A DNA stretch of 61,743 nucleotides, filler included, from Hausera hauseri (lineage: Eukaryota): assembly GCA_046269625.1 (NCBI GenBank). It is 11 parts of 11 records of this genome, joined end to end, with 100 filler letters (N's around TTAATTAATTAA, not from the genome) between each part and the next. Parts side by side here need not be neighbours in the genome. Positions count along the whole stretch, not along the records: positions 40,688 to 48,819 come from JBJURY010757652.1; 10 more parts are not named here. One strand, written 5' to 3'. The notes beneath the pieces were generated by a model. That model was not told the origin of the DNA, did no database searches, and saw nothing but the letters and a program-made list of their open reading frames with translations. The position numbers were made by a program, and so were the translations under genes. Below, piece after piece: positions 5,610 to 60,720 of this stretch (its first letter is position 1; each line of letters opens with the position of its first letter).

Positions 5610-6150
5610 TGTCGTAAATCAGACTGAACTGTAACGTCCAAATTTGTATATATTACGAACAATATAAAAATAGAATATTTAACAATTAGTAGAAATTTAA
5701 ATATGGATTCATTAGTAATTCATGAAAATTGCAGAATGATTGTGTAGCTAATAATGTCGAAAATTGCGAAAATAGAAAAACAGTCTAAACAATACAGATA
5801 TAATGAAAAAGAATACAGAATAAATTTAGAAAATTCATGTAAATAACGTATCTAGAATCTGGTTGAAACACTATATAAGCAGATCGCAAAAATCAGACTC
5901 GAACAAATTAGAGTGTTAATATAACAGGCAATACATTACAAAAACAGAATCACGAAAACAAACGATACAATTTACAGGCAAGCAGCAATAAAACTATTGA
6001 GTTAGGATCATAGATGCCAGGAAAGGAAACTAATTATTCTAGTAACAAAACAGCGTGATTCCAAAGCAGAAAAACAGAACTTAGAACTAGCAAATCATTT
6101 CGTCAAATGCTTTGAAAAAATTGTTTCTGTCAAAAACGTGCTCCGTAACA
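5610..6150 (+). repeat. Putative 3' LTR (right end uncertain)
   Basis: Starts TG after the PPT; TATATAA at ~5872, AATAAA at ~5987; candidate end ..GTAACA at 6150. Confidence 0.45.
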
Positions 6151-6771: not shown

Positions 6772-6871
6772 NNNNNNNNNNNNNNNNNNNNNNNNNNNNN
6801 NNNNNNNNNNNNNNNTTAATTAATTAANNNNNNNNNNNNNNNNNNNNNNNNNNNNNNNNNNNNNNNNNNNN
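6772..6871. other. Artificial contig spacer
   Basis: N44-TTAATTAATTAA-N44. Confidence 0.98.
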
Positions 6872-22891: not shown

Positions 22892-22988
22892 CGTCTATGA
22901 ATGCGATCGTCATATTCTCACATTTTTTCATTTTGGATAATTCTTTGTTATAGTATAAACGTAAAATACGCTTATCGAAAGCATTTAA

Positions 22989-30909: not shown

Positions 30910-31741
30910 AACTGAGCTGTTATCGTACCAGAAACTTGCAGATTGATTCAAATACTGTCTACCAAATCATTCAACGACTTAAGTTGTGAGGTTTATTGTC
31001 ACATAAACCTCATAAAACAGGGTCGAAAACAAATGTTAAAGATTCGAGCAAAACGTGAGGTTGTTCGGGAAGCGTCGAAAGCTCCATTTAAAAGTTCCAG
31101 CAAGTTTGCCGAAATAGTTCAAACATACTTCCAGAAAAAGTTGCCCTCAGAACTATCCGAAAAGTACTCAACCAAGCTGGACTACGAGGATGCACAACCC
31201 GAAAGAAGCCCTTTATTTCAAAAATCAACAAAGCCAAGAGACTAGCTCTCGCAAAGAAGCACATAAGCAAACCTCAGAGCTTTTGGAATAGTATTTTGTG
31301 GTCTGACGAAACAAAACTTGTTTTGTTCAGACTGGCAAAAATATCTGGAGAACAGCAAATCAAGCAGTGCTTCCAAAACACCTCATTCCAACTGTCAAAT
31401 ATGGAGGAGGGAACGTCATGGTTTGGAGGTCGATGGCTTCCAATGGTGTCGGTAAAATGGAAATTTTTTATTTCAGAATGGATTTGGAGCATAACATCGC
31501 AATTCTGGGTAGAAATGAACAGAAATCTACTCAAAAGCTCCAGATAGGGAGAAAACATGTCTTCCAACAGGACAGCGACCCCAAACGCACCTCCAAAAAG
31601 GCACAGCTTTTCTTCAAAAACAAAAAGTTACGGTTCTTGGAATAGTCTTAGAAAAGTCGCCAGATTTAAACCCCATCGAACATTTATAGGGAATTTTAAA
31701 GAAAAGCGTATATGGTGTTCCTCCATCAAACCTGAATCAAC
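30910..31741 (+). mobile_element. Tc1 (DD34E-type) transposase remnant
   Basis: ILWSDETK, PTVKYGGGNVMVW, FQQDSDPKRTSK, SPDLNPIEHL. Confidence 0.9.
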
Positions 31742-31841: not shown

Positions 31842-32447
31842 AGTTGCAAAAACCAATGGAAGCTATTACGAATGTTGGAGCATTTGGAACTAGGGTGCAA
31901 GTAAAAGACTTAATTAAATGTGAGACAAAAGTCTTTAATCAAAAATTGGAGCAAGAATTTAGAATAGCCGATGAACTGGTGGCTGAAGCTATACTTGGTT
32001 GTGATGCACTAGCAAAGTTAAATGATATGTGTATGAACTTAGAAACCCAACAAATTCAACCATATCGAAAAACAAGGAATGAGAAAAAAAAATATAGTAT
32101 CAATTGAAGATGATATGTTAATAACAGCTAGAACAGAAATTGTACTCAAGGCATTAGTAGAAGGCCGAGACGAAGAAGACGTATATATCGAACCAAATAT
32201 GATTTTTATGGACAAGAATGAGCTATAGATAGCCCATACCATTGATAATATTCGAGAACACCAAGTGGTTGTTCGGATAGCTAACGTTTCAAATAAACCA
32301 AAATTATTGAGAAAAGGGACAAGAATTGCCTATGTATATTTGATAAAGGATATAGGTAACAATGCTACGGAAGCTATTATTTCCACTGTACAGGAATTAT
32401 CCGAATTTATGGAAAGACAATGACAAAAACCACGAACAGAAGCCTGG

Positions 32448-35015
32448 ATGCGATTAGAAAGTAAATCAATGAATAAATTGCAAAGTCATCTTAACAAAAA
32501 CAAAAATATAACAAAACTTGTCAAGACTCCTACCATATGGAATGATTATGACCTGTTCGGTAAAGATAGTACATTGACTGATGCGGAAAAAGAAGGTACA
32601 ATAAAAATATTACAACAATATAAAGATACCTTTGCCATCGATGAATATGATATGGGTATTATACCCGTCATCAAACACGAAATTAAACTGAAGACTGGAA
32701 TGGAAACTCCAATTAAAAAGAGGCCATATCGGCTTAACTATGACAAACGAGAAAAGGCTAAAAAAATAAAAGCCGAAATGAAACAGCATGACATAATTAG
32801 ACCAAGCAACTCACCATGGACAGCACCTATCGTGATGGTACAAAAGAAGGATGGGTCCATTAGAATGTGTGTGGATTATCGTGCTTTGAACGAAGTAACG
32901 GTAGACAATACCTACCCGTTACCGAGGATTGACGAAATATTAGACAAGCTGAAAGACAAAATGTTGTTTACCACGTTGGACTTACAAAAAGGTTTCTGGC
33001 AGATAGAAGTACAAGAAGAGGACAAACAGAAAACAGCCTTCGTGACGGCAGACGGACATTATGAATTCAACCGGATGGCATTCGGAATGAAGAACGCCCC
33101 GGCAACTTTTCAAACAGCTATGGATATAATTACCATGGATGCTCCACACATAATGTGTTATGTGGATGACGTTATAATTGCGTCAGCTGATTACAAACAA
33201 CACAAGGAACATCTTAAGGATATGTTGGAAAGATGTGCTCTCTTGGGAATTAAAATTAGTTTAAAGAAATGTTGTTTTGCCCGAACTAAAGTTGACTTTT
33301 TAGGCCATACAGTAAGTAGAGATGGAATTAGTCCACAAATTGGAAAAATCAACAAAATCCAAGACTTTCCAGTTCCAAAGACTGTTAGAGGAGTTCGAAA
33401 ATTTCTTGGCCTTACAGGCTATTATCGTAAATTTGTTAAGGACTATCAACAGATAGCTTCCCCTCTACATTCATTACTACAAGAGAATTCCAAGCTTGTT
33501 TGGACCCAAGAGTGTCAAAAAGCATACCAACAATTAAAGGACTGTTTATTAACTCCACCAATATTAGCGTACCCTAATATGTCAAAACCATACTTTCTAG
33601 CAACGGATGCAAGTAAAGTCGGAATTGGAGTAGTCCTGTCACAAAAAGATGATCAAGGACAAGAGCACCCCATATCATTTGGAGGAAGGAAGCTGAGGAA
33701 GCACGAAAAAAATTACTCTACAATTGAGAGGGAACTGCTTGCTATCGTCTACGCGTTAGAACAATATGGCCAGTATCTATCTGAAACAAAACCAATTATT
33801 GTTTATACTGACCATAAGCCGCTACAATGGTTAAAAAGCCATAAAAATCCAAATAGTCGCCTAATGAAATGGGCTATGTTACTTCAACCCTACGATTTGA
33901 AGTTTGAATATAAAGCTGGTAAAGCTAACGCAAATGCTGATTATATGTCAAGGATATCTGAGGATATAGATCAAAAAGATAAAGAGATAACAGATAAACC
34001 AGGGGCCATAGAAGCCATTTGGAGTATAACAGAGCAAGAAAAATCGCTACAACAAAGACAGCAGAATGATGAACAGGTAAAGCAAATTAAGGAATACCTT
34101 CAGAAGAAGATTGTGCCAAAGAATAATGATCTCTACACCCATTTGACAAAATTTGCTGAAAATTACCAGATAAAAGATCGTATATTATATTATAACCATA
34201 AAGGAAAATGTGTCGTCGTTGTTCCCCAAGAAGATATAAAACTTTTGTTAATACAATACCATGATGGTATGTTGGGCAGACATCACTCAAAGAAACGGAC
34301 TTTAGGTCGATTGAAAAGAAAATACTATTGGTATAAAATGTCCAAAGATGTAGAAGAATGGAGCAAAAGTTGCCCTATTTGTGCAACGCGAAGGAATACG
34401 GGCTCGAAAATTAAGGTTCCTTTGAAACCATTAGAATGCCCACCTGCCCCTATGGAGTTCTCAGCCATGGACATTCTAGGACCGTTGCCAATGACTATAA
34501 ATGGGAATAAGTACATGTTGGTTTTTGTTGATTTATTTTCCAGATGGCCCGTAGTAGTTCCGATACCAGACCAAAAAGCACAAACTATTGCACAAGCGTT
34601 TGTTGAAGAGATTGTATTCAATTATGGAGCACCTACTAAACTACTAACAGTTCAAGCTCCAAATTTTATAGGAGAAGTAATGGCGGAGATTTCGAAGATA
34701 TTCCATATATTACAGTTAAAAACTACCCCATATCATCCACAAACTAATGGAGCGGTCGAGCGATTTAATGGAACCTTAACCAACATGCTTGTAACTATGG
34801 TTAATGAACGACAGGATGACTGGGATGAATACATCAAACCATGTTTATTCGCTATAAGGAATACAATTCATCCTGCGACAAAAGAAACTCCGTTTTATTT
34901 AATGTATCTTAGAGATACGCACATGCCAGTTGATATAGATTTTAAAATGCCCCTGTCTCATCTAAAGGACATGGAGTATAAAGAATTATTAGAAGAAAAA
35001 CTTGGATATGTGTGA
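32448..35015 (+). CDS. pol: Gypsy Pol: reverse transcriptase, RNase H, integrase
   Basis: RMCVDYRALN, YVDD, TDASKVGIG, TDHKPL, MDILGPLP, YHPQTNGAVERFN; frame continues after a single TGA. Confidence 0.97.
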   Translation: MRLESKSMNKLQSHLNKNKNITKLVKTPTIWNDYDLFGKDSTLTDAEKEGTIKILQQYKDTFAIDEYDMGIIPVIKHEIKLKTGMETPIKKRPYRLNYDKREKAKKIKAEMKQHDIIRPSNSPWTAPIVMVQKKDGSIRMCVDYRALNEVTVDNTYPLPRIDEILDKLKDKMLFTTLDLQKGFWQIEVQEEDKQKTAFVTADGHYEFNRMAFGMKNAPATFQTAMDIITMDAPHIMCYVDDVIIASADYKQHKEHLKDMLERCALLGIKISLKKCCFARTKVDFLGHTVSRDGISPQIGKINKIQDFPVPKTVRGVRKFLGLTGYYRKFVKDYQQIASPLHSLLQENSKLVWTQECQKAYQQLKDCLLTPPILAYPNMSKPYFLATDASKVGIGVVLSQKDDQGQEHPISFGGRKLRKHEKNYSTIERELLAIVYALEQYGQYLSETKPIIVYTDHKPLQWLKSHKNPNSRLMKWAMLLQPYDLKFEYKAGKANANADYMSRISEDIDQKDKEITDKPGAIEAIWSITEQEKSLQQRQQNDEQVKQIKEYLQKKIVPKNNDLYTHLTKFAENYQIKDRILYYNHKGKCVVVVPQEDIKLLLIQYHDGMLGRHHSKKRTLGRLKRKYYWYKMSKDVEEWSKSCPICATRRNTGSKIKVPLKPLECPPAPMEFSAMDILGPLPMTINGNKYMLVFVDLFSRWPVVVPIPDQKAQTIAQAFVEEIVFNYGAPTKLLTVQAPNFIGEVMAEISKIFHILQLKTTPYHPQTNGAVERFNGTLTNMLVTMVNERQDDWDEYIKPCLFAIRNTIHPATKETPFYLMYLRDTHMPVDIDFKMPLSHLKDMEYKELLEEKLGYV

Positions 35016-35299
35016 AACCTAGCTTCACGACATATAAAAATATGCCAGAAAGAATATAAAAATAGATACGATGAGAAAACGAAGTCCCATGGTTTCAAAC
35101 CCGGAGATAAAGTCATGCTACATACGCCGTTAAATAAGAAAGGCAGAACACCAAAGTTGGACAGACCATATAAAGGTCCATATATGGTCCAAAAAGTAGA
35201 CGAAACGAATATCTATTTGAATAAAAACAAAAGGAACAAGATAGACCCGATAAAAGTCCACGTAAACAGGTGCAAGCCAGCAACCACAGAATCAAGGAT

Positions 35300-36093
35300 T
35301 AGAAGTGGAAATCCTAATTTATTATTAGTAACAACGTTTATGGTATTGAGTTTAGTGACTTGTGCATCAACTCAGTCTCTCGATGTCAAGTATAAAGCTG
35401 TTCAAATCGGAAAATACCCATGTGTAAAAATTACAGCCAACCGGAACTTAACAATAGATGAATATATACATATATTCATATCAAAATTACCTATTGTGGA
35501 AAAAGCGACACCAGAAAATTGTGATTTATACCACAATCATTCAGTACATATTTGTTGTGGACTTTCATTTGGAGAAACGTATAGAATTCAGTACGCAATT
35601 GGAAAAAGTGATCACGGTTATATAACATATTTCTCTTTCCCAGGTACTACCCATTACTTCCATCGACCATATTTTCTTATTTCATTTTATTCCAAGGTCA
35701 TGAAAAATGGACCTTGCATAACAGCAGAACCAGACGTACAAATCACGAAGTATGTAACATTCCAATATGAAATATTCGATGGCACTAACAACACATATTG
35801 TAAACCAAATTACCAAAATCCATATGTGTTGTCCAATTATTTTTAATAAATAGTATATGATATACTATTGGACCACGTACAATGGTTATACATGGTCAAA
35901 AACAGCAGATGGACCCGAGATAATAGTAAGATCCCCGGTAAAGATAACCCCTACTTCAACAAGAAAAGCAACTACCTTGGTGACACAATCAAGTATACTA
36001 ACTACATTACATAAAATGGTAACGAGTCCCACCATGGAACCTAAGAAGAGAATCAAAGAACTAGACATAATTATACAACCAACAAATTACTCA
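35300..36093 (+). pseudogene. Signal peptide, Cys-rich ectodomain repeats and Thr-rich stalk fused downstream of integrase
   Basis: LLLVTTFMVLSLVTCASTQ; PCVKIT..NCDLYHNHSVHICCGLSFGETYRIQY; TPTSTRKATTLVT. Confidence 0.65.
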
Positions 36094-40687: not shown

Positions 40688-40729
40688 AATTGTTATTCCA
40701 TATATAATCCAAAGTGAATTTTCACCTCC

Positions 40730-40918
40730 TTGGGAAAAGAATGTGCCATTTGTTTGAGTGAATGCTCAATGGACCAAATAGAATTAATTACAAGTAAGCA
40801 TCAATTCTGCCGTCAGTGCATAAAAGGATGGTTTGCACCTGAAACCTCTTGTCCAAAGTGCCGCACTAACATTAAATTATTCCAATATGGAAATAACTAT
40901 TATACTGTAAAGAATTGA
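40730..40918 (+). CDS. RING finger protein, C-terminal fragment
   Basis: CAIC..SKHQFCRQC..W..CPKCR (one ligand Cys reads Ser). Confidence 0.75.
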   Translation: MGKECAICLSECSMDQIELITSKHQFCRQCIKGWFAPETSCPKCRTNIKLFQYGNNYYTVKN

Positions 40919-41153
40919 TAAATAAAATTTTAGTATTAAAATTTTGTGATGTTATAGAGTATATTGTATTTTAGCTGAAATGCAAAAGGTCAAAAAACTG
41001 TAATTCCAAACACCTAGACAGTATGAATATGTCAGACCAGTACAATCTAATACAGTACAATATATATTACATTATCAGAATAGACAATTCGGACCAGCGT
41101 TATTTATTAAAAGACAAATAAGTTACTCCAAGGCTATAGTATTAGATAACTCT

Positions 41154-42197
41154 ATGAGAGATACACAAAACAGAAAGATATCGTTTTTAAAATACCGAAA
41201 TGCGCCTATTCCAGAAGAACTAGCACAAGCATATGTTAAAACCGGATTATACAGAACTACAACAGGACAAATTAAATGCATTTATTGCCAAGGAAAATTC
41301 CAATATAAACAAACGAAAGATCGACAAAATGAAATACATAAGAAATCACATGCTACTTGTCCTTATTTATTAAATCTCGATATCAGTAATATACCGTTTA
41401 TAGATACTTTTGTTAAAAGACCTGATTCAGATAAGGATACGAATTATGACACAACAATGTCAGTAAAAATAATTTACTCAACGGATAATACAGTGAAAGA
41501 AAATGTATATTGGATTTCAAACACAGTGCAAAAGAGAAAATTAACCTTCAATGGAAAAAGAGAAATTGAATATCTAGCTGAACAAGGACTAATATTGATA
41601 TCTAAGGAAGAAAAACAGTATGTCAAATGCACTATATGCTTAAAAGAAACGTACTGGTTAGAAAACCCCGATCAACGATGTCCAAAAATATTACATACCA
41701 ACAAGTGCGAATATTCAGCAAACAGAACCTTCGATAATCACACCAAGAGACAATGCAGAATACAATTCAATATCGGAAAACTATATGAATGTTACCAAGA
41801 TAATTTAGCAGCTACATCAGTGATATCCAGACATCCTACCAAACGAGAAAATATTCTACAGTACATTAAATATCGGACAGAAACTCAGTTGGACTGGTCG
41901 CCAAATGTATTCGAACTATGTCAGAATCTAAATTTTATCTCCCCGGAGAAAGAAAGAAAACACGAACGAAATATTCTCAACAACCTTTATCTGCGTGGTC
42001 TAGAATGCGTGATTTGCTATGTGGATGTAGCACAAGTCATTTTCTTGCCTTGCGGTCATTTGAAAACATGCGAGAAGTGTTCAAATAGAACAGCGAATTG
42101 CCCAGTTTGTAAGAGTATTATAGAAAGACAAGTGACGTATTTTCAGTTTTCAGAAGAAAATAGTGAAATAACTCTGACAGATATGGGCCTTGATTAA
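41154..42197 (+). CDS. Inhibitor-of-apoptosis (IAP)-like protein: BIR, divergent BIR, RING
   Basis: BIR1 CIYC-x16-H-x6-C exactly; BIR2 LAEQG..CTIC..H..C; IAP-type RING CVIC..VIFLPCGHLKTCEKC..CPVC. Confidence 0.9.
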   Translation: MRDTQNRKISFLKYRNAPIPEELAQAYVKTGLYRTTTGQIKCIYCQGKFQYKQTKDRQNEIHKKSHATCPYLLNLDISNIPFIDTFVKRPDSDKDTNYDTTMSVKIIYSTDNTVKENVYWISNTVQKRKLTFNGKREIEYLAEQGLILISKEEKQYVKCTICLKETYWLENPDQRCPKILHTNKCEYSANRTFDNHTKRQCRIQFNIGKLYECYQDNLAATSVISRHPTKRENILQYIKYRTETQLDWSPNVFELCQNLNFISPEKERKHERNILNNLYLRGLECVICYVDVAQVIFLPCGHLKTCEKCSNRTANCPVCKSIIERQVTYFQFSEENSEITLTDMGLD

Positions 42198-42337: not shown

Positions 42338-42787
42338 ATGAAAATAAAGAATCAACCACCTAAATTAGGATATCAATGGTACAGATTGTATAATAGCTCT
42401 GTACTCAACAAGATAACCGAATTGGGATACTCGAAATATTTGGCAATGATTGCTATTAAAACTAATGAGAAAGCAGAATACGAAGCATCACCAAAAATGA
42501 TTACCTATATATACCAAGTGCAATTAATGGATAACAATTACTATCAAGGAATTTAATATTTGATTTCAACATTAAAAGAAAAAGAGAAAAAAATAAAAGA
42601 AAGATGCATAGACCTTAGCCGTGCAGTTTGGATTTGTGTAAGTTGTAGAAAAAGTCAAGCCAATATATTTTACCTACCATGTGGACATATTATTCATGTA
42701 AGATTTATGTACCTAAAGGTTCCATGTTATCAAAATGTGCTATATGTGAATTGTCCATAGACGAAGTGTGTACTATATACATATAAT
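42338..42787 (+). pseudogene. UBA-like, coiled-coil and IAP-type RING (IAP C-terminal half without BIR)
   Basis: KITELGYSKYLAMIAI (UBA-like); CVSC..IFYLPCGH..CAIC with a stop and a frameshift. Confidence 0.65.
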
Positions 42788-42790
42788 AAA

Positions 42791-45420
42791 ATGGATAATA
42801 ATCTAGTCTTCCTTAATAACAATGACGCAGGGACACCAGTACAACACTCGATCCGAGGATGACTGGCACAGGGTCAATCAACAGCAATTAATGAGATTGC
42901 TTTAGATGAAGGAAATATTAGCCCTACTAAAAGTTCGGATACGTTGAGCACAACATCCGCCCCAGGAACACTAACTGATATTGATTCATTACAATTGTCT
43001 CCTGCTGCGATACAACATCAATGGGTAAGAGGAGTTAATGGTCGACGAAGGCCATCCCGAGAGCAATATCGTAATGCATTTAACTCACGACACTTGACGC
43101 AGAGAATAACTAACCAGGAATTAGAATGCCGAACACGTTATGAAGTATATAATATAAATGTAAATGATCTCAGAATAAGACAGAATCGAACGTATGACAG
43201 TATACAACAACTAATTGAAGAAATACAAGATATACCCCGACAAGGAGGAGGAGTTGCAATAGAAACAGATGTTATAAATAATGGTATAAGATTGGACGAA
43301 GTCGAATGAAAAATCACCCAAACAGAGCAAAAAGTGAATAATAATAGTATGGGTTTAAACAAATTGGGTGCGAAAACTGGTCAACTTGCACAAGAGGTTA
43401 GCATCTATTCTAGACAAATGCGTGATATTCGACAGCAAACTATTGAACATATAGCTGCATTATATAGGAATAGAGAACAGATAGATAATAACGAAAGACA
43501 AGTAAGGCAAAGGATAAACTATATGCAAAATCAAGTAACAATTATAGTAAATGAACAGGACTAAATTCAAGAAGGAAATAACTGTACTAGAAACCAAATA
43601 GAAACGTTGCCGCGAGATATAGATCGATTGAATGAACGTCTTGAGCAAGTAAGGACAGAGGAAATAATAGCCCAACGTCAGGAAGAAGTACGCACACCCG
43701 AATTCTCAGTAGAGGTAGGTTCAATGTCTTGTGAAACCTCCGATATCAATAGCAGCAACATGGAGCCACAAGGAGATAATCGAGGGCCAATGGCTCATTT
43801 AAACGGATATAACTGCGACCCTAACAATAATAACGCGGCCTACGATTTACCAAATTACAACGAAAGGCGAAGAGAAGAGAAATATCAAACACTTCCTCGT
43901 CTTCAACCATATGAAGGACGCATATCGGACTTGGAATATTTCCTGGACTAATATGAATCTCTGGCCACAGCTATGCATTGGAATGATGCCAAGAAAATAT
44001 CACTTCTATTAGTGCATGTGAATAAGGATTTAAGGATGGCAATAACGCGTCTACCTCCACGAGTAAACGAAACTTGGTTGCAACACAGAAAAAGGATTTT
44101 ACAAAATCAGCAGGTCAATATATAAGAGAAACGATATCTAAAATTTCAAAATTGCAAACAGAAACCAAACGAATAAGTGTTGACTTATATTAATAGATTT
44201 AAAACAGCAATGAGTAGATATTTTAGCCATAACGCAAACACCTTTGGTGCCATGATTATGAAACAATTTGTACTTGGACTTTTACCACCCTTAAGAGAAG
44301 GAGTTAAGTTCCATACTCTTAATAACATTAACGAATTGATAGACTATACTAGAAAAATGGCAACACGGATAGATGAGATACCCTTATGGACTGATCAAAC
44401 GCAAATAGCAGCAGTGGCTACAACATCATTATTAGTTAGACCAGATGTACCAAATCGTAGTAATTCACCTTGGAGAAATTCTTCAAGAAGTCAAAGTCCT
44501 AATCGTCAAGGTACCAATACCCCACAGCGAAGTAATACTCCAGAGAGAGGAAGCTTTAACCAGTCATCCAGAAATTACAATCAAAGAGACACACAATACC
44601 AGCAAAGTAGGGGAAATTACAATGATCGACAGCGAAACGATAAAACACGAGGTGATTCAAGAGACAAAAATGACAACAGAAGTCGATTCCCTAGTACAAA
44701 AAGATATAGCAACGACCAAAACTTCGGGCGTTACGATTATAGAAACCCATTCTATAGACGAGATGGTAATTGAACACGATACCCAAACAACCGTTAAGAA
44801 GAATCAAAATCTAATTATTCTAACGACAGGCGAAGTGAAAGTCGTGAAAGGTTTAGAAGAGATGATAGTCGAGAAAGATATAATAATTTTAATAGAAACG
44901 ACAGTAGAGAAAGGAATAACCGGCGAGGTGATAGTAGAGAAAGAAATAGCTTTAGAAATGACAATAGAAGTGGGTATAATAATTCAAGATCAGGAAACTA
45001 TAACAGAAGACGTGATTATACTTCATCTCGACGAGAATCGGATAGATATAATAGAAATCCTATTCCATACCCTTCAAGAGATCAAAACCGAACTCCTTCC
45101 CCCAGATCAAGTAGCGATAATAATAGGTATACTCGATCACCGGACTACAGTTCCAGACGAAATGAATCATCGCCAAATAGAACTACCTCCACATTCAGGT
45201 ATAATAGGAATGTGACACCAGAATATTCCAAAAATTTCAATAAAAGGAAAGTGGATTCAACAACGCCATCTTACAGCAATCCTTAAAAAGAAAAAGGAAA
45301 TTTATCAGATAATAAGAAAAGTAATAACGACGAACGAAATGTCTCACCTCGTCGTTAGGTAACTTTTAATGAACAAACTAAATCAGCCTTTACGGGCTTA
45401 GTAATAGCAAAACCCATAAT
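42791..45420 (+). pseudogene. gag: Gag: coiled coil, retrotransposon capsid domain, long Arg/Ser/Asn/Asp-rich tail
   Basis: One frame from ATG 42791 with about ten premature stops; PYEGRISDLEYFLD*YESLATAMHWND, CKQKPNE*VLTYINRF, QFVLGLLPPLR. Confidence 0.8.
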
Positions 45421-45559
45421 GGAACACCATCAAGTTACATCCAAACCACCAACCAATAGTTCTATACTGGAAAAACCCTTCATAACTAGAAAGCATTTGG
45501 ATCAGGCAGAACGGAAAGTACCAGATATTCAAAGTAATACACTCCCATACATGTTATGG

Positions 45560-46830
45560 CCAGAAACTAAAGAAATCAAAAATTTACTTTTGACCTTTGT
45601 AGCAATAGATAAAATTAATGAAGAAGCACAGGAACCCAAAATTAACCGAATAAGAATAGACAACATTGAAGATGATTTGATAATTGAATTAAAGAATGTA
45701 TATCTGGAAAAAGAAAAACACTATGAAAATCTTAGACAATTATTCTGTGGAAAACTCATAGTCGGAATAGAATTACCATGGCTATTTAAAGAAATACAAT
45801 TAAAAGAAACTGATATCTTTGGTACATTCAGTGTAGACCAGAATTTTAACTTACCAGATGATTAATGGGAAAGAGAAAGTACATTACCACAACAATTAAA
45901 TAATTTACGAAAGAGTACAAAACCAAACTTAGTCGTCAAGGATCTCCATATTTCATTTTTCCAAGCAACCCTTCGTACAGGGACGACGGACGTCCCGAAC
46001 ATAAAATAACATTTAATACTACCCTAATTCCAGAGGCAGTACTAGAGCGCATGGACATGGATATTGTTCAGAAATGGGATAAACTGTTTGTAGACAAGAA
46101 AACTAACCGAATAGAGTTCACGGACATCACCGAACAAGGACCAACTTGCATGGAAGGGATTGATAAAGTCTACCTTAAAAGGACTGATATTCGAATCAGA
46201 AGAAATGACCAGCCATGTGCTATAATTACCAATCAGGGAAAAGCTCGATTGAAAATTAATGATAAGATGGTAATAGTTTCTAAGGAAACTAAGATACTCC
46301 CTAATTACCCCTATGAAGGAGACTATCAGATTCAACCTTTAGGTGATTGCCCGATATACTTAATACAATTATTTAAGGAAACACCCGTGTTAATTGTGTA
46401 CGAACCCGTGAAGCAGGACAAAGAGATAGTTCTCACTGGTAGATGTATAACTAAAGGAAACCAAAAGGGACTTGCTCAGGTTACAGCTAAAAACTTAGAA
46501 GGAGAAATAATACTTAATAATCATGTATATCCAAATATACCAGATACTACAAAGTATACTGAATAGAGTCGACGGTCTAATCTCCAACGCCAAGAGTCGG
46601 TAAGTGAATTTATGAATAAGTATTTGCCAGGAAATATAATCATCGGACGATGTTTACGAGAGCTATTAAACACTTTGAAAATAAATTACGTAAATTTAAC
46701 CGCTATTTATGATTTGGAGCAAACTAACAAAAAATACAAATGTTTAGGCTTATATAATGGTCATAACTTAGAAATTATGGCACAAAGATGTCAATACCAA
46801 TACCTAAAGACAGTACGAGTGGAATACAAT
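45560..46830 (+). pseudogene. Two degenerate DEDDh (REX4/ISG20-like) exonuclease domains
   Basis: FVAIDK..NRIRIDNIEDDLI..QLFCGKLIVGIEL and LAQVTAKNLEGEIILNNHVYP..YLPGNIIIGRCLRELLNTL..IYDL. Confidence 0.55.
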
Positions 46831-47427
46831 GTGGCATGGATAATAGAAAGCCAAAATACGTTACGAATAGCCTTTCCAGCAATAGACGAAATGGAGAAAA
46901 CTGAAGAAGCTAGAGCAATTTCAGGAATTGAACCAATCGCTCAAAGACATCCGGATATGGATTCCGACGAATATTCACACGAGTCTGAGAGAATTAGACT
47001 AACCGGGGAATGGATAGACCAGTATGATGATAGATTAGTTGCACCAATTACCCAACCGAAGGTTCTGCCCCAACGACCAACATAATTCGAAGATATCCGA
47101 GATTCAATACAACCCAGTATATCTAAGAAGGAACCTCAGATAATGGACGATGAAACATATGAAATCTTAGATGCTGATATTATATCTATATCAGATACGT
47201 TCCATTATTTCGGAAATACATTATCACCAGTTGAAAACCCAAAGATTATTCCGGAAGTGAATATTCCACCAGGATCTATAACATACGGCGAACGCTCGGA
47301 GTTAGTAATAGAAAAAATTACAGCTAAATTACAAATGACTGATCCAGCACCCAATGAGGTATGGGATGCTTTATGACAATATGAGACACAGCCATTAATC
47401 AATCGAATAGAATGCGAACCATTACTT

Positions 47428-48486
47428 ATGCCATTGACAATGGATGATATATTTTGTTTCTTAGCTGCAAGAAAATTATTAAAGACGCTAGGAAGAGAGT
47501 TAAGACGAAAACACCAAAGAAAACCACCGTATATAATAAATATAGAAATTAAAACCAATAAACGCGAACAAATAATTAAAGTAACAACGGGAATGTTTAC
47601 TAAATTCACAGACCTTCGAAGAAAGGTACTAGACGAATTAGATCTCGAAACTAATATAATAGCAAAAACTAATTTTTATGGCAGATTAGCCGTTGACAAT
47701 GATCATGTTGTGGATTATGGACTACTTACTGGAAAGATCTACCAGATTACTATGGAAATAGTCAATAAGAAAAGGGGAGGAAGATCGAGGAAATGTGATT
47801 TTAACCCAGTAAGTGACGATGAAGAAAAACCTGAAGAGGAAGAAAAACCAGGAAGGCAAAGAAAGAGAAGACATTTGTCACGAAAACGTAGGGAACAACA
47901 GGAAACAGTAGAAGATATATTATATGACAAATTCCAACGATTTACCATTAGTGACGATGAAAACGAACCAACACAAAATCCAATTTCAGGAACATCAAAC
48001 CAGAGTGACGTAAATGTACCAAAAGTGACATTGACAACTCATGAACTTCTAGAACAGTTAATTAAGAAAGCAAACCCAAAACAACTTAAGAAAATACCAG
48101 CAATTACAACAATTACACTACTTTCCATAATAGAAACTGCTGGAAACTTTTCGTCACAAATCACAAGGTTATTACACAAATACGAAATGAAAGGAGGTTT
48201 AAATAAAGCATTGACACGGTTATTAAAGGACTGTGATCAGAATCGATTATTGATGGCTTTTGGATTCATAGTGGTTAGTTTTAAAAAACAAACAGCGATC
48301 GATGCTAAATTACATCACACGATAAGGGAATTAGCCTATCATATGGATGAGCTAACAAAAGATTGGGTAACAAAACATGGTGGTTGGGATGAAATCCTCA
48401 AGAAATTCGATCCCACCACATTAATATATCCTAAGAATACCAATATCTCTTGGTGGTACAAATCATTCACTTGCTACTATACTTAA
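47428..48486 (+). CDS. BH3-like motif, ubiquitin-like domain, basic/acidic linker, Bcl-2-family domain
   Basis: LKTLGREL; INIEIKT..FYGRLAVDNDHVVDYGL..KKRGG (47536-47781); BH1-like DQNRLLMAFGF; BH2 DWVTKHGGWDEILKKF. Confidence 0.8.
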   Translation: MPLTMDDIFCFLAARKLLKTLGRELRRKHQRKPPYIINIEIKTNKREQIIKVTTGMFTKFTDLRRKVLDELDLETNIIAKTNFYGRLAVDNDHVVDYGLLTGKIYQITMEIVNKKRGGRSRKCDFNPVSDDEEKPEEEEKPGRQRKRRHLSRKRREQQETVEDILYDKFQRFTISDDENEPTQNPISGTSNQSDVNVPKVTLTTHELLEQLIKKANPKQLKKIPAITTITLLSIIETAGNFSSQITRLLHKYEMKGGLNKALTRLLKDCDQNRLLMAFGFIVVSFKKQTAIDAKLHHTIRELAYHMDELTKDWVTKHGGWDEILKKFDPTTLIYPKNTNISWWYKSFTCYYT

Positions 48487-48819
48487 TAGCTGTAAGCAGC
48501 TTGAATACGACAAAAGCATAAGAAGATTATGATTGTTCCCGACCAGAAATAACAGACACACTTTCATTAATGAATATAGGTAAGTGCCAGAACGCGAATC
48601 CGATATCAGTGAAAAAGAGGGTCCTTACGATTATAATTTGTATCAGAGAATCAGTTATGAACAAGTGCAAGTAAAGGAATGCCAGGTTAATAAAGTAATA
48701 TTCGCTTACAACTGTGGTCGTAATTTATGGAATTCAGTGATTATTCCATTAGGATTACCTAAACCTGTAACAATAACGGCCGAAAATTGTAGGAAAGCCA
48801 CAGATTGGATTCACATAGA
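48471..48819 (+). pseudogene. env: Signal peptide and N-terminus of a chuvirus-glycoprotein-like envelope protein (cut by contig end)
   Basis: LLLYLIAVSSLNTTKA*EDYDCSRPEITDTLSLMNIGKC / YNLYQRISYEQVQVKECQVNKVIFAYNCG..ITAENC. Confidence 0.65.
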
Positions 48820-48989: not shown

Positions 48990-49198
48990 CAGTGGATGAA
49001 GAAGAAATTCGTGATGCATTCTGGGTTTTTGATAAAGATGGCAATGGCTTTATTTCGGACGCTGAATTAAGACATGTAATGACAAACCTCGGAAAGAAAC
49101 GTACCAACGAGAAAATCGATGAAATGATTCAAGAAGCTGATATTGATGGAGATGGTTAAATTAGTTATGAAGAATTTGTTATAATGATGACAACGATT
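48990..49198 (+). pseudogene. Calmodulin C-lobe (EF-hands 3-4) pseudogene fragment
   Basis: [47 protein letters not shown] with a stop in EF4. Confidence 0.9.
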
Positions 49199-50171
49199 AT
49201 TGCTGCTGGTTGCCCGAAGTGCTGGATGACAAAGTACACAAAGGATGGACAGGAAAAGAATGAAAAGTAAGATATTAATGCTTAGATGTAAGTTTATATT
49301 GATATAGCAATGGAAAATGTAAACATATTTGACATTGGTAAAGAAATTCCATTTGCCCATATGGGACAAATTCGTGTACAAATGACTAATTTGACAATGA
49401 AATACGGTGTTCTTACTGATGGATCTAAAAATGTAGAGACGACTCGTTTTCGAGTATAAGGCACAGTAAAAGGATTTATGTTCACAAAATCGTAGACATG
49501 GATGATCAGTAATCAGTGTCAAAGTCAATGTTCGAGGTATTTAATAACGTACTTTGATCATTTAGGTATAGATCTGGCTCACTAGGAATAGTTTGTAGGC
49601 ATTCTTGGGATGTTCGATGTTTATTTGTTATATTTGTATATTTTGGTCATTAAAAATGAATGAACCCAAATTAGGCAGTTGTACTGTCTAACATACAGAA
49701 CCATATTGGATGAGGAAATATCAACATAACATTTGCTGTGTCTGTCATTTAGCATTAAAAATGTTTTTCTTTCAACATTCGAATTTACAGTAACCTTAAT
49801 GAATAGAGGATCGATGAGAGGTTAAGTGGCCATACTACAACTTCTGATATGAATATTCATTGTCAGTGAAATAAATGTAGGAATATGGATACCGCTTTGG
49901 ATTTTCGAATATTCAATTGAGTACTTGTTCTATATCTTTCAAAGTTTGCATGTCAAGTTTTGGTGAGGTGTGAAGGTTGTTTTGATGATGTTGATTATAT
50001 TTTGTTCCCATGGATACGCCATTTTGGTGGTGCAGGTAATATCATGGCAATTAGAGATGCATCTATTAATAACATTTGATGTTTGATCATATTTTTTGAC
50101 ATATTTTACTGAAAAATAACAAAATTTTGCCAAACATTTTATTCGATAAACACAAAGAGCGTTAACAAATG

Positions 50172-50910
50172 TTATATTAATTGATATCGAGTCCATGAAG
50201 CAGATGAATTTGCAAATCTCAGTTGCAATGACTGATCTGTATAAATGTTCAACATGCAGCTATTGGTACTTATTTGCATGAAGGCACTTTTACAATATGG
50301 CTGCCTGTTCAAACACCTAAAAATTATAACTTAACTTTGTTAAGCACGAATTATTAGCTTACTTAAAGGTACAATACATTGGAGACACGTCAGAATAAGT
50401 CTCCAATAAGCCTTCTTCAGCGTTATTATTCACAACCATCGATGATGGTGACAATTTTATCATTTGTGATACAACCTGGTTCAATACACAAATGACGTCT
50501 ACAGAATGTGGTGAAGTACACGACCAATCACATAAACCAGATGGAGACACATATATGATGCAGTCTTGTGGTATGGAAACGCCGTTCAGTTCACCTGAAG
50601 GCCAGTACGTAGTCTGTGTAAAAATTGACCCATCAAAATTCAGCCATCCATTTTTATCATAGTTTCGTTCATTGACCAAATCTGATATGCCTACATAAAA
50701 ACGGTTAGCCATCCAATTCAGCTGTTTTATGTTATCCAAATCTGGACCATTGGGTAATTGACCATTCATAGTTTCACAATATCGCGCAGCATCCCATGTA
50801 GTCATTGATGTTACTGAATTTCTTTTATAATATGTTTTACCATTAATAATCGATGTAGCTGCATTGGATAACCCAACTAAACAGAGAAACCAAAAGAAAG
50901 TATCAACCAT
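50172..50910 (-). CDS. Secreted C-type lectin + PAN/apple domain protein, two exons (50910-50363, 50316-50172)
   Basis: Signal peptide MVDTFFWFLCLVGLSNA; CTLD (YC..GQL, FYVGISD, W..GELN, QDC, DWSC, VIC); 46-nt GT-AG intron; exon 2 CLNRQPYCKSAF..SCML. Confidence 0.8.
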
Positions 50911-51619
50911 ATTTGAAACTGAAATGAGAAGGCTAAAAAACTGACGTTTACATTTTTGAACAACTGTTTTATTCTGCGTTTGACAAAAACAAATGGCGTT
51001 GATGCTCATTTGTTGTTCTCTCTTTTTTCTATGCAACTATCCAAGATATTTGAAAATAATGAGAACTATTTGATGGGTTTATTTTACATACACAACAAAT
51101 GAATAACAATCAAACTAATAAACTCAGTTGGACTGCGGTAATAAAGGAGTTGAAAATTGGTTGATGAATTTTGATTAGTTTTGTTTTTACTTTTGTGTGC
51201 CGTATGGAATTGATAAAAATATTTTTTTATTAAAGTCGCCATTGTTCCACAATTTACTTATGACTAGATATAACTTGTGGATTTTCCTCCAGGATAAGGA
51301 AAATCTCGTAAACATTGTAAACGGTTTTGACTTTACCATAATTAACACAAACCTCAGGGTGCGATGCCTGACCACAGATGGTCAGGTCAATCGGCACAAT
51401 AAAAATTTATAACTGGATGTCAGAAATGGTACAATTATTGAATGAAAAGTAATCATGGATATATCTAAGGCCTGTATCGAAAAGTATTGACGTTGCATAA
51501 AGTACATTTTTGTGTGAAAAGGCGTTTGATATATAATGATTGGGTTGTATGAAGAAACACGTGAGTGCTATGAGCAACTGTGCGTAGGTGTTTTGAAATA
51601 TCTTTAGTATTTTAATAGC

Positions 51620-54837: not shown

Positions 54838-54937
54838 NNNNNNNNNNNNNNNNNNNNNNNNNNNNNNNNNNNNNNNNNNNNTTAATTAATTAANNNNNNN
54901 NNNNNNNNNNNNNNNNNNNNNNNNNNNNNNNNNNNNN
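54838..54937. other. Artificial contig spacer
   Basis: N44-TTAATTAATTAA-N44. Confidence 0.98.
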
Positions 54938-55332: not shown

Positions 55333-56800
55333 TTGGTAGAGACACCGGAGAGAAACATGACAAAAAAAATGGTGTCAGCACCTCCCCCTACAGAAGAAAG
55401 GATGGTGACTGTACAGCAGCACCAACTCGAGCACATGATAGCGGAACATACAAGCATGAAAAAGGCACACGAGGAGATGAAAGCCATGTGGGAACAACTA
55501 CAAGCACAACAATCTACGGTCACTGGAGCCCGACCTCCACCAAAATCAACTGCAGGAAAAGACGATCCCAATCGAAGAGCACTGGATAAGATTGACAACA
55601 TGGTGAGCAAGATTGATTTAAACAGCAAACACCAGAACGTTTGCACTTTTGTGTAGTCCTTTACAGGAACTGACTCGAAATCCTTTAAGTCTTGGATTTC
55701 ACAAATTGAGAAATACTCACACTTGGTGAAGGCAACACAGGAGGAGAAAAAAGAGCTGGCTACACTACATCAGACGGATTAGCCAACGATTTTATCAAAC
55801 GGAGATTCAGAACACATCCAGATGAAGACTGGGAAGCTTTCAAGAAGACATTAGTGAACAGTTATGCTGAGGTTACAGATATGCAATACGCGATTGCTGC
55901 TCTCAGAACAATCCGTCAGGAAAGAGATGCACTGGTCCAGTTGTACAGTGATAGAATGCTTAATATGGCCGAGGATGCATACATGGGGCAAGACATTATG
56001 GCAGAAGATATCGGCAAGTTACTGATACCTATATTCATTGATGGTCTTAGGAACACACCAACGAAAATAAAATTGATGAAAGATGACCCAAAGACGATAG
56101 CAATTGCGATTCAGACAGCGGTCGATGAAGACAATTTCAACAAGAGAGTCAATATGAGACTAGGCAGAAAGACGCCAAACGATTGACAGGAAGAACACAT
56201 GGACGTAGATCACTTCCAAACAAAATGGCGATGATGACAGCACAGAGAACATGATGAACGTTGGGACGACAGATATTACAGACATAATGCAGTTCACAAA
56301 GTAGAAAGGGATACCAAATGTGGCAAAGATGGACACATTGCCAGAAATTCTAGAAGCAAACAGGAGACAACCAACAACCCCCAGACATAATGCTGCAAGT
56401 TCAAAACAGTGTTACAAATGTGGCAAAGTGGGTCACTTTGCAAAATTTTGCTGAACAGGAGACGGAAGTCATCACAGGCAACAGGAAAACACATATTCTG
56501 TTCCGTAAGCTCCGACCCGAACAGGAAGTTAGCAGGAGCCACACAGGAAATACGGACACAGAGGAGCAAGATATGAAAGTTACCAACATTTCAGTACAAT
56601 AGTCAGGGAATCAAACATTCTAACACAGCAAAAGAGAGATACCATGCACGAACATCTAGAATTATACCGAATATGATGAGGTCTATGAGAAGGTAGGAGA
56701 ATCGAAAATTCAAGAAGAAACCACAGAATCAGAACACGAATACACGAAATGATAAACAGAAAGAAATGAGATTCGCTCAGAACAAGTAACATGACAAACT
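55333..56800 (+). pseudogene. gag: Gag with capsid domain and CCHC knuckle
   Basis: FKSWISQIEKY, LRTIRQ..FIDGLRN, CYKCGKVGHFAKFC. Confidence 0.85.
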
Positions 56801-57056
56801 AGTAGGAAGTCGCAACAGGCAACACACTGAAAACCAAAGTCAGAAGCAGGGCTACAAACACGAACCAATGGAAATAGATGCATCTCATAGAAAGCAGCAA
56901 ACACAGAATTTCCCATTCCCACCCAGCCCCAAGAAGCAGAAAGAAGTTAACACCCACATCCCCAAACCCAGGAAAATCAACGTCCCTTTCCCAGAAGAGA
57001 AGTCACGATAACACACCAGCGGTAGTAGAGGCGAAAGAGACCACAGACTATAGGAA

Positions 57057-60000
57057 TCATAGAGGCGAGATTAACAGCCTTGAAGATCCAAGCTCTTGTT
57101 TAATATATTTTGAGAAGGTCAGAGTCAGATGCTTAGTGGATACAGGAGCCCAAGTCAGTATTTTGAGTGAGAGAGTCTTCAGGATGCTGAAAAAACAGAA
57201 TAAACTAACTCGGAATAACACGGACTTAAGATCTATTACCGGAAGTACACTACAAGTTTTGGGTAAAGCAACATTAGAATTTCGAATCGGCGAGATAAGT
57301 GTGAAACATACGTTCATGATTGTGAGAAACATGTGTAGAAGTGCTATACTGGGAAGAGACTTTTTGCTTCAACACCATGCCAGAATATACTTCGATCTGA
57401 AGAAAATACGAATACGTGATACATACATTGAATTACATGATGATACGCATGTAGCATCCATTATACGAGTCAAACAAAAAGCTTTGTTGAGACCAAATTC
57501 AGTAAATATTATAGTTTCAGCTATGAAGAAAAATGACTATTGGCATATAGGAGACAATGTAACAATCAGCCCATAGAAGATACTGAGATAATTGAAGAAC
57601 CAGGTCTACAAGCAGTATCGGGAATAGTGAAGTTAAACAAAAAGAGAGAGTTCCCAATAATGATAATGAATTTTACCGGAAAAACAATAAAGTTAAAGAA
57701 AGGCTGTATTGTGGCGAAAGCAGACAAGAAAAATGGAGGTAGCTGTGAAACAATAACTAACAGCCAGAGTAATATGCGCCGAACAACAACGGTTGAGACA
57801 CGAAACGACAACATCACAACAGACACAGATCCAAAACGGAGTCATAGAGACCAAGTGCTGCAGGAAATCAAGAGCGGGTTATGGAGAGTGAAGTCGACGA
57901 ATATAGTGGCGGAAGTAAAGCAAACGGAAGATAGACTTACAAAACTACTTGAAACATTGAAAGTCGATAGACAACATAAGGAGAGAGTCGAAAAATTTAT
58001 AACCCAGCATGCAGATGTTTTTGCAATCACGGATATGGAGCTTGGGCGCACGACCACTGTCACGATGGAGATCAATACAGGCGATCATACACCCATTAGC
58101 CTCAAACCTTACAGAACTCCATTAGGCAATCGGGAGATAGTGGAAAAAGCGGTCGAAGAAATGCTTCAAGCAGGTATCATTGAGCGTACGAGATCTGAAT
58201 GGTCGTTTCCAGTTGTCATCGTGACTAAGAAAGATGGATCACACAGATTTTGTGTTGATTACAGACAACTGAACGCCGTTACAACCAACGTCAGTTACCC
58301 CATGCCGCTCATAGACGATATACTAGGACTTTTAGATGGCACGACTTACTTTACCACCCTCGATGCCAGATCTGGATTTTGGGCTATACCAATGTCACCG
58401 GATGCCAAGCAGAAAAGTACCTTCTGTACCCATACTGGTTCATATGCATGGAATGTGATGCCCTTCGGTTTGAAAGGCTCACCCGCGACCTACATGTCGT
58501 TAATGAACATTGTACTGGAAGGCCTACAAAGCTTCGCGTTGGCATATATAGATGATGTGCTATTTTTCACGAAAGGAGATATTGAACACCACTTAGCACA
58601 CGTTGAGAAAGTCTTTGATCGAATGAGGTAGCATAAAGTAAAACTAAAACTTAGTAAATGCGAGTTCCTCAAAGAAGAAACAAAATATCTGGGATTCATT
58701 ATTACCAGAGAAGGAATCAAGCCAGATAAAGAAAAAGTAGCAGCAATCAGACAGATGCCACCACCACGTACAACGAGAGAAGTTCGAGGATTTTTGGGCA
58801 CTTGCGGATACTACCGTCGATTCATAAAAGATTTCTCAAGAATAGCTGAACCACTAGTGGCCCTGACAAGAAAATTCGCCAGATTTCGATGGGAAGAAGA
58901 ATGCCAAAGAGCGTTTGACCAGCTGAAGCAAAGTTTGACAGTTGTCCCATTATTAGCATATCCCGATACCAGCAAAGGATATATTTTATATACGGACGCT
59001 TCCGATTACGCCATAGGCGCCGTTCTTACCCAAGAAGACGGTGAAGAAATTGTCAATGGCAAGCCGAGAAAGAAAGAAAAACCGATATACTTTCTCTCAC
59101 ACCGATTAAGCAAATCCCAGAAGAAGTGGCCCGTACTAGAGAAAGAAGCATATGCTATCCATTATGCTCTACAAAAACTCAACTTCTATTTGCATAACAG
59201 TCAGTTTGTAGTCCGCACTGACCATATGCCTCTGAAAGCGATGTTAAGATCCGACGTCCAGAACAAGAGAATGCAACAATGGATACTTAACCCTCAAGGC
59301 TATAATATTTCTATAGACTACATCAGAGGACCACAGAATACAGTGGCCGACATGTTATCAAGAATATCAGAATCAATACCAGCAAAATAACCAACTGAAG
59401 CAACAACAGACGAAGCAACTCCAGATATCGATGACCATACATTACAGATTTCAGTAATCAATTCTGATCAGAAACATCTATATAAAGACGATAGCAACAC
59501 TGACTCAACAAATGAAGAACATACTGAAACAATGTTCGCTATGAGAACCTAGCAAAATAAAGACGACACGTTAAAAAGAATCATTGACGATCTGAAGTCA
59601 GGGAAACCTGACAAGTTACAAAAGTGGCGGAAGTTTACACTTGAAAACGGTGAACTATACAGAATTGGTGGAACCGAAAAACACAATTTCAAAGAATGTG
59701 TCCCGAAACAGCTGAAAGAAGAGGTCATTAAGCAATATCACGATGAACTAGGTCATCTAGGCAGAGACCGTACCACCGAAATGATTGCTCGTAAATATTA
59801 TTGGGCTAACATGAACAAGGTGATAAACGAATATGTGAAACTCTGAAAAATGCAAACTACGGAATATGGAAGCTTTGCGGCATCCACTTCAGGACCCTGA
59901 TTATGCCTCTTTCCCATTTGAAAAGATTAGTTTGGACTTATCGGGACCTCACCCAGTTACAGCATCAGGAAACAGTTACATCTTGCACATTGTAGATATT

Positions 60001-60720
60001 TATAGCTGTTGGCACGAACTACATGCCCTACCAGACAGATCAGCAAACGGCATTATCGAAGTTCTAATGGAGGAAGTAATCCCATGCTATGGTTGTCCGA
60101 AAATTCTGATAACCGATAACGGCAGGGAATTTGTCAATAAGGCAATGACAGACACCCTTCGAGAGTTGAACATCAAACACATCACAACTGCTACATACAA
60201 CCCGGGAGCGAACGGATTTAATGAACGTCAGCATAGCACGCTATGTGATGTTATCACCAAGTACGTAAATAACCAACCGAAAGACTGGGACATGTACTTA
60301 AAGCAGGCAGCCATGGTAGTTAGAATCAAGGAGAATGGGAGTCGACGATATGCACCATATGAAATGCTATTCGGAAGAGAACCCATTTAGCATTGGACAA
60401 CTTGCTGAAACCAAGACCAAAGTACAATGGTGAAGAGTTCCACAAATATGAGACTTCATGAGATATCCGTCAACATCAGTAGGAACTTAAGGCACGCACT
60501 TAAACAGAGAAAAGATCGCATTGAACCAAACACAACGAATCAAGAATTTGCAATAGGAGATAAACTATACTACAAGAATCACCATCGGTCCTCAAAAATG
60601 GATAATAGATGGATCCCAGGATACCAGATAGTTGAACAAAAAGTTCCAGTTACCTATGTCATCAAAAACCAGTATACGGGTCAATCCACCACTACAACCA
60701 CCAGTCAACTTAGGAAAGAT
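57057..60720 (+). pseudogene. pol: Pol: protease, RT, RNase H, integrase
   Basis: LVDTGAQVS, RFCVDYRQLN, YIDD, YTDASDYAIG, SLDLSGP, ITDNGREF, YNPGANGFNER. Confidence 0.95.

Follow-up and report, generated by a model that had tools for sequence, protein, structure and literature searches.

A domain order of Gag, ubiquitin-like domain (Ubl), Bcl-2 and Env, accompanied by BIR/RING accessories, has been in print since 2019 for the planarian retroelement Burro. According to the available portion of that account, ORF1 of Burro carries Gag, a Ubi2/SUMO-like domain (PF11976), BCL-2, env and Pol in frame, with BIR/RING extras; two or three CCHC Zn knuckles follow retrotrans_gag, the internal region reaches up to 25 kb and the host is a triclad planarian (Arkhipova & Yushenova 2019, PMC6431247). 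The same text describes the Burro env as matching gypsy Env and mononegavirus fusion glycoproteins, its class being left unnamed there, and mentions decayed Burro fragments with stops and frameshifts in Dugesia japonica (PMC6431247). The RING/BIR protein of Burro1 (B-IAP) has been reported, in a second-hand and partial account, to shield planarian stem cells from apoptosis (PMC13465017). Errantiviruses of flatworms, Bryozoa and Nematoda possess, according to the available text of another study, the order GAG-ENV-POL with an ENV of HSV/gB type, and gB-type env is spread over metazoan Gypsy elements (Chary & Hayashi, PMC13524379); Bcl-2, apoptosis and ubiquitin domains have 0 mentions in the main text of that study, and 'bcl' occurs 0 times in 7 supplements.

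The window analysed here, that is the whole stretch of 61,743 nucleotides from Hausera hauseri, consists of eleven contigs joined by ten 100-nt spacers (an N run, TTAATTAATTAA and an N run) and does not represent a single locus. The feature under study lies at the 3' end of the contig at 40688-48819 (8.1 kb), and the reading that we favour, with a probability of about 0.8, is that this contig is a decayed genomic copy of a Burro-like, gag-env-(pol) Ty3/Gypsy LTR retroelement making one long polyprotein. AT skew is positive across the whole contig (0.11-0.36) with an A-rich + strand, as expected for one retroelement on that strand. No second copy of the same element was found within the window, and no repeat is common to this contig and the other window contigs. 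The contig carries neither element end, the LTR/primer binding site region being outside it, and the downstream part of Env is absent from the window because the contig stops at 48819, inside the Env gene. We call the element Burro-like, not Burro, because it is without CCHC knuckles and neither Pol nor LTRs were seen on the contig.

Three related proteins frame the comparison. P0001 (1963 aa) was found with the 78-residue Env piece (E 2.4e-28) as the 1 match among 22 longer-protein candidates, and it is a single ORF that passes through a Gag tail, Ubl, Bcl-2-like domain, hydrophobic segment and full Env. It is colinear with window positions 44537-48817 in four blocks (49, 56, 73 and 72% identity), which abut at both Env-side frame changes of the window copy with no sequence in between. 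The contig of P0001 has 7573 nt, 5889 of which are taken by the ORF, and the ORF stops about 35 residues after the transmembrane segment (TM) of Env. When the 860-residue middle frame was used for a representative search, only P0001 and P0002 matched; the latter carries a match to the start of Gag, and its residues 393-482 match PF03732 (Retrotrans_gag) with E 7.6e-4, under the curated cut-off. P0003 (2855 aa), the one further long relative, is 32% identical over Env; it is a polyprotein in the order Env-PR-RT-RH-IN, and its Pfam domains are of Gypsy type. The near-length Env search gave 2 matches of 2413 candidates, one of them the query, and the search for shorter Env relatives 0 of 5130; across the near-length, shorter and representative searches P0001 is the only sequence with an in-frame Bcl-2/Env junction. 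CCHC motifs number 0 in P0001 and P0002, and residues 1-900 of P0002 hold only 4 Cys. Inspection by eye suggests off-frame translation in about 20 residues at the start of P0001 and at the end of P0002, both records being imperfect copies.

Along the contig all recognisable parts lie on the + strand. At the 5' edge, a remnant of an upstream accessory ORF encodes a RING finger (40718-40912; PF13639, E 5.6e-8), which shares the A-rich skew and is probably a member of the element. It is followed by an IAP-like accessory ORF (41004-42194) with BIR in two stretches (PF00653, E 1.1e-6) and a C-terminal RING (PF13920, E 1.4e-12), whose link to the element is suggested by strand skew and by the Burro precedent, and by a second, degraded RING remnant (42557-42757; partial PF13920 match, E 7.8e-4). 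Gag opens with an N-terminal coiled coil and a capsid-like domain (42863-44452, capsid at about 44012-44281), which has stops inside and is 50% identical to P0002 over 1077 columns. Translation and comparison with P0001 delimit the Gag tail (44453-45385), a low-complexity region rich in Arg, Ser and Asn, without a CCHC knuckle, which is likely a nucleic-acid binder.

Positions 45386-46947 hold conserved domains without assigned function (279 of 519 residues identical to P0001, frame change near 45910), for which Pfam gave no meaningful match and Pfam and PDB sequence searches were blank. Folds of DEDD-exonuclease and cupin type had been considered by eye for 45400-46950 and were dropped, Pfam and PDB sequence searches having given no support. 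Beyond a linker, a putative SUMO/ubiquitin-like domain (47518-47781; 65/89 identical to P0001) ends in a Gly-Gly common to P0001. Atlas put PF11976 (Rad60-SLD) at the top for the corresponding P0001 residues 1024-1114, with a score of 0.85 that we take as a lead only, and 8 of the 10 best family-bearing matches fall within the family or clan of PF11976; the assignment is sub-threshold, and Pfam and PDB sequence searches gave no match in the Ubl region. An acidic/basic linker leads to the divergent Bcl-2-like domain (48016-48417; 96/134 identical to P0001, with sub-threshold family matches), after which come the hydrophobic segment and Env. The domains are the better conserved parts, identity to P0001 being 73% in Ubl, 72% in the Bcl-2-like domain and 71% (69/97) in the Env N-terminus vs 41-47% (73/180, 38/80) in the linkers.

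The Env part is broken into two pieces. A preliminary description had quoted its motifs, and translation of the + strand recovers all of them. The Bcl-2-like ORF (47377-48486) occupies one frame of the three-frame translation and ends at 48486. A second frame holds the hydrophobic leader together with YDC..TLSLMNIGKC (48453-48617) and is interrupted by a stop at 48519-48521; the third reads LYQ..VQVKECQV..YNCG..C (48611-48817). The leader and Env pieces span two frames instead of the three described earlier, the Bcl-2-like ORF taking the remaining one. The frame changes are at about 48453-48456, from the Bcl-2-like ORF to the leader, and at 48611-48617, within Env. The leader begins near 48453 instead of 48471, and the hydrophobic segment, formerly placed directly after BH2, starts some 25 codons downstream of GGW in BH2 (48376-48387; in P0001, 1313-1316 vs 1341).

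Similarity of these pieces to class III fusion proteins was evident from several comparisons. The second Env piece alone matches PF24664 (Monjiviricetes_fusion), the Pfam family to which Monjiviricetes (chuvirus-type) glycoproteins belong, with E 2.6e-5 and 22.9 bits, under the curated cut-off of 27, and the two shorter pieces gave no match alone. P0001 exceeds the cut-off with 215 bits (E 1.9e-63) over residues 1345-1952, which cover profile positions 5-591 of 653, and the second Env piece is 72% identical to it. The first ectodomain piece (48522-48617, from YDC to C) belongs to a tblastn HSP with P0001 1341-1395 (40/55 identical), and the second, which runs up to the contig end, has 50/69 residues identical to P0001 1394-1462. 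As a control, the P0003 Env N-terminus was scored against 7368 frame windows drawn from the entire window: the seven top scores, from 57 to 86, were confined to 48401-48701 on the + strand, with 46 for the next, a mean of 23.8 and an sd of 4.7. The Env similarity is beyond chance, and 48453-48817 holds the interrupted beginning of an Env of class III (herpes-gB-type, PF24664). In P0001 the Env is flanked by hydropathy peaks at 1344-1354 (signal) and 1911-1929 (TM, beyond the window contig end), and its PDB sequence search gave no match. The chuvirus-glycoprotein-like class III nature claimed earlier is supported by both PF24664 matches, and so is the linkage of env behind the Bcl-2-like domain, the in-frame P0001 ruling out a separate unlinked ORF.

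We regard env as fused, and not as a separate ORF, because P0001 reads in one frame through Gag tail, Ubl, Bcl-2-like domain and Env. The aligned blocks of the window copy contain 14 stops and 3 frame changes over all domains, and since these are spread over the blocks the copy is decayed everywhere, beyond env alone; its stops and frame changes arose by decay after insertion or by errors of assembly and have no regulatory role. A programmed frameshift at the Env junction was also considered, and was rejected in view of the in-frame P0001 together with the absence of a slippery heptamer at 48381-48680.

The intact polyprotein would run from Gag (coiled coil, capsid, RS-rich tail) through the unknown domains, Ubl, an acidic linker, the Bcl-2-like domain and an internal signal to Env with its C-terminal TM, and P0001 is one ORF in that order from the Gag tail on. 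The part upstream of the hydrophobic segment would remain cytosolic, and the segment would serve as an ER signal inside the chain. Cleavage by signal peptidase after a conserved T-x-A, which stands before mature Env in 3/3 sequences (window, P0001, P0003), would free Env into the lumen and leave the h-region behind as a tail at the C-terminus of the Bcl-2-like product. HCV core and flavivirus capsid likewise retain the signal of the next glycoprotein, that of HCV core being later removed by signal peptide peptidase, and the tail here could either be a lasting anchor or be cleared by this peptidase. Pol most likely follows Env past the contig end, as P0003 and Burro suggest, and the Bcl-2-like domain, together with the upstream IAP, would most likely dampen apoptosis in expressing cells.

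The hydrophobic segment (48453-48518; h-region at about 48453-48497, polar c-region ending in T-x-A) has a core of 11-15 residues with a Kyte-Doolittle (KD) value of about 2.75-2.77 over 11 residues. All 13 of 13 h-region residues are identical to P0001 1341-1353 and 6/12 in the c-region; the window and P0001 20-1462 share just 4 identical runs of at least 13 residues, the h-region among them, and such identity is unusual for a signal peptide. The PF24664 match begins within the segment, at residue 1345 of P0001 (profile 5) and residue 133 of P0003 (profile 6). P0003, which is without Bcl-2, has a comparable hydrophobic segment at the same place (131-145); the leader similarity is weak (reached by 25 of 2000 shuffles), and the first 130 residues of P0003 compare with the Bcl-2-like region at z 0. 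From hydropathy, the T-x-A motif and the Pfam extent, we predict that the segment is in the first place an internal signal peptide belonging to Env, since the Bcl-2-less P0003 has one and the Env profile of Pfam extends into it. As the polyprotein is continuous, topology implies that the h-region would stay on the Bcl-2-like C-terminus after T-x-A cleavage.

Several other explanations can be weighed against this picture, and some of them concern the element as a whole. Separate env ORFs are the rule for most Gypsy elements, as far as the available part of PMC6431247 goes, and the window leader is in a frame different from that of the Bcl-2-like ORF, from which one might suppose that Env is made separately, from its own start, a spliced subgenomic RNA or a programmed frameshift, and that the segment never stands on Bcl-2. 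This seems to us very unlikely: P0001 is in frame over the junction, and the leader frame of the window has no Met at 48435-48518 and no slippery heptamer nearby, although a spliced RNA may exist alongside the polyprotein. A non-autonomous Gag-Env derivative that has no Pol and is moved in trans would be compatible with the fused junction and might be suspected from the end of P0001 so shortly after the Env TM and from protease motifs, none of which was found in P0001 or P0002 or between Gag and Env. However, P0001 may have been cut by the contig end or by a lesion, P0003 runs from the equivalent point into protease, and another window contig encodes a Pol 42% identical to that of P0003, so we consider such a derivative unlikely. 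The preliminary description had proposed instead a BEL/Pao context and an independent capture, and a recent acquisition of a glycoprotein from a chuvirus, of the kind represented by Anakin-type BEL/Pao elements in mosquitoes, would fit Monjiviricetes_fusion being the only meaningful Pfam family and the several Jingchuvirales glycoprotein endogenizations reported in arthropods in the available text of PMC10084718. The Gag, however, is of Retrotrans_gag type only, by the sub-threshold PF03732 match on P0002, which is colinear with the window, and Pol in P0003, the nearest Env relative that has one, is of Gypsy type. BEL-type domains comprise Zn knuckles, DUF1758/1759 and Peptidase_A17; no BEL/Pao-type Pfam domain was found in P0003 Pol or in P0002 Gag. 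A hand count over 56 ungapped positions of the Env piece gave 18 identities to Smed_errantivirus_1 vs 12 to the mosquito BEL-51_AnFu, a suggestive count, not a tree, that drew on one of the six Schmidtea rows and one of the three BEL rows, with no chuvirus sequence among those compared. By eye, an insertion is common to P0001, P0003 and the six Schmidtea rows, and all three BEL rows have it in a much shorter form. Planarian gag-env-pol errantiviruses thus seem to offer a closer match to the Env than BEL/Pao elements do, and a Gypsy Pol after Env is seen only in P0003, at 32% Env identity, the window contig stopping inside Env. Moreover, gB-type env in Gypsy elements has been argued, in the available text of PMC13524379, to be ancient and widespread, and the in-frame order Ubl-BCL2-Env is already published for Burro (PMC6431247, in the part available). 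The BEL/Pao context is not supported by these data, and an independent, recent capture is highly improbable.

Other alternatives concern the Bcl-2-like domain of the Burro-like polyprotein and its tail. Hallmarks of the Bcl-2 family are NWGR in BH1 and GGW in BH2; the latter is present in the window and in P0001, and the canonical NWGR is absent, the region after it aligning with A1. In a PDB phmmer search the best match was Bcl-2-related A1 (E 0.011), and 8/15 matches belong to the Bcl-2 family, 6 of them A1/BFL-1 constructs. Foldseek with a model of the domain alone (pLDDT 42.8) returned 240 matches at E <= 10, and 38/39 among the matches listed are of the Bcl-2 family, the model being of low confidence, the best E 0.82 and none at E <= 0.001. 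The domain also occupies the same place between Ubl and Env as the BCL-2 of Burro, as far as the available description goes (PMC6431247). Still, PF00452 reaches only E 0.17-0.2 on the Bcl-2-like pieces, far under cut-off, and is outranked on one of them by Pfam Death (E 0.056); the full ORF and P0001 gave no Pfam Bcl-2 match. VIA-align on the domain model returned generic helices (best Z 6.2) with no Bcl-2 chain among the best 50, and Atlas an uninformative hypothetical protein (0.77). AlphaFold models of the Ubl and Bcl-2 ORF (pLDDT 33.7, from a 2-sequence alignment) and of the domain alone are both unusable, and Foldseek on the former gave roadblock/longin-type noise only. It is rather improbable that the helical domain belongs to another kind, such as a death-domain-like module, and has its GGW by chance, and we keep the Bcl-2 assignment as putative and moderately confident, though weakly supported. 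With regard to its tail, a plausible, if tentative, hypothesis is that the signal segment also anchors the Bcl-2-like domain durably in the membrane, and the same caution applies to the stronger proposal that selection maintains it in two roles, as the signal peptide of Env and as the durable anchor of a viral Bcl-2 that is active. Cellular Bcl-2 membrane anchors start about 25 residues after BH2, which is where the segment is found; its h-region is fully identical in the window and P0001, no other hydrophobic tail exists in the window Bcl-2 frame (best 11-residue hydropathy 0.46), and topology implies retention after the signal peptidase cut. On the other side, the hydrophobic core is short (19-residue KD 1.78 vs 2.54 for the Env TM), a comparable segment occurs in the Bcl-2-less P0003 and is covered by the Pfam profile, so that its presence is explained by Env function alone, signal peptide peptidase might remove the h-region thanks to a polar residue within it, and the conservation is based on two sequences. 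We consider rather doubtful the possibility that processing alone gives a tail-anchored viral Bcl-2, by a cut after the Ubl Gly-Gly and by signal peptidase before Env, with the ER-held signal as anchor; the Gly-Gly would in this case be cut by a host ubiquitin/SUMO-type protease or by the element's own protease.

If the signal peptide does stay as a Bcl-2 anchor, this would explain the placement of Bcl-2 immediately before Env, and one short segment would couple Env synthesis 1:1 to anti-apoptotic protection of the producing cell, beside the element's IAP. It would be a second anti-apoptotic arm next to B-IAP, as the latter is partly described in PMC13465017. If the anchor reading is false, the locus is an ordinary decayed copy. 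Literature searches found no printed statement of such dual use; their scope did not extend to the original reports on Burro (Grohme 2018; Dev Cell 2026), which, with their supplements, may already discuss the junction.

Among known systems, HCV core-E1 and flavivirus C-prM offer a mechanistic analogy only, in that an internal glycoprotein signal stays on the upstream cytosolic protein; these viruses are unrelated, their upstream protein is a capsid, and its tail is later cut by signal peptide peptidase or by a viral protease. Mosquito BEL/Pao elements with a Chuviridae-like glycoprotein share the class III family and the N-terminal Cys pattern but belong to another retroelement superfamily, with 12/56 identity, and no Ubl-Bcl-2 fusion is seen there in the available part of the report (Dezordi et al. 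2020, PMC7642597). The errantiviruses of PMC13524379, as far as its available text describes them, are similar in having a class III gB-type Env after gag, and the Env N-terminus resembles the Schmidtea C1a rows (18/56); they differ in that no Bcl-2 or ubiquitin domains are mentioned for them, while a putative Bcl-2-like domain and a putative Ubl are found here. Burro/GYPSM1, in the description available, has a single polyprotein with Gag, Ubl (PF11976), BCL-2 and env in frame, an order with which the putative Ubl and Bcl-2-like domains here are consistent, and likewise BIR/RING accessories, and the IAP-like ORF of the window is comparable to Burro1 B-IAP. The present element differs, in a comparison made by description and not by sequence, in its RS-rich tail without CCHC and in having no MATH or ankyrin match; as to whether the Env type is that of Burro proper, the class is unnamed for Burro and of gB type here. 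To the Burro pattern the locus thus adds a variant with an RS-rich Gag that has no knuckles and an Env clearly of gB type, together with a natural relative whose in-frame reading fixes the junction.

The window consists of eleven short contigs joined by ten 100-nt spacers of the make-up N-TTAATTAATTAA-N, from the first at 6772-6871 to the last at 54838-54937, and the neighbourhood of features across a spacer is without meaning. The contig following that of the decayed Burro-like copy carries an intronless C-type lectin ORF (50362-51036, minus strand, E 6e-5) and a broken remnant at about 48990-49200 (plus strand), which by eye we take to be a calmodulin-like EF-hand; neither is related to the retrotransposon.

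Within the Burro-like copy itself, about 520 conserved residues without a family lie between the Gag tail and the ubiquitin-like domain (45386-46947, plus strand). By eye, this region presumably comprises a beta-rich stretch between two stretches shaped like DEDD/REX4-like exonucleases, a resemblance that found no support in a Pfam search.

Other transposable elements of the window include a separate decayed Gypsy element at 55710-60390 (plus strand), with matches to Ty3 capsid, protease and RT, as well as three DNA-transposon features: a piggyBac-type transposase at 14814-16535 (plus strand; DDE_Tnp_1_7, E 4e-51), a mariner-type remnant at 29703-30299 (minus strand; Transposase_1 match) and a remnant at 31092-31645 (plus strand) that we assume, judging by eye, to be Tc1-like.

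Another Gypsy element occupies 3-3092 and 5291-5614 of the first contig (plus strand), where the reading frame of RH-integrase runs on through a signal-like segment, an uncharacterised domain that contains Cys, and a TM-like segment; a RING lies farther downstream. The stretch behind this element's integrase is similar to the one at 35316-35843 (z 5.0; 0 of 300 shuffles) and is a putative second membrane protein, distinct from Env, that is joined to the end of Pol. An ORF at 21770-22894 is weakly similar to the post-integrase domain on the first contig (z 3.2; 4 of 300 shuffles); it belongs to an A-rich strand with three long ORFs (21770-25945, minus strand), none of which had a match in a Pfam search, and the whole is possibly an accessory region of a giant element of similar kind.

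Gypsy RT-RH-IN at 32064-35846 (plus strand) continues past the integrase into a hydrophobic segment and then an uncharacterised domain. It could be Pol from the Burro-like copy's own lineage, though carried by a separate contig. Its identity to the Pol of P0003, the distant relative with an Env-PR-RT-RH-IN polyprotein, is 42% over 1088 columns. P0003 itself possesses three aspartic-protease-like motifs (residues 864, 1151 and 2320) and more hydrophobic segments beyond its integrase (residues 2486-2740).
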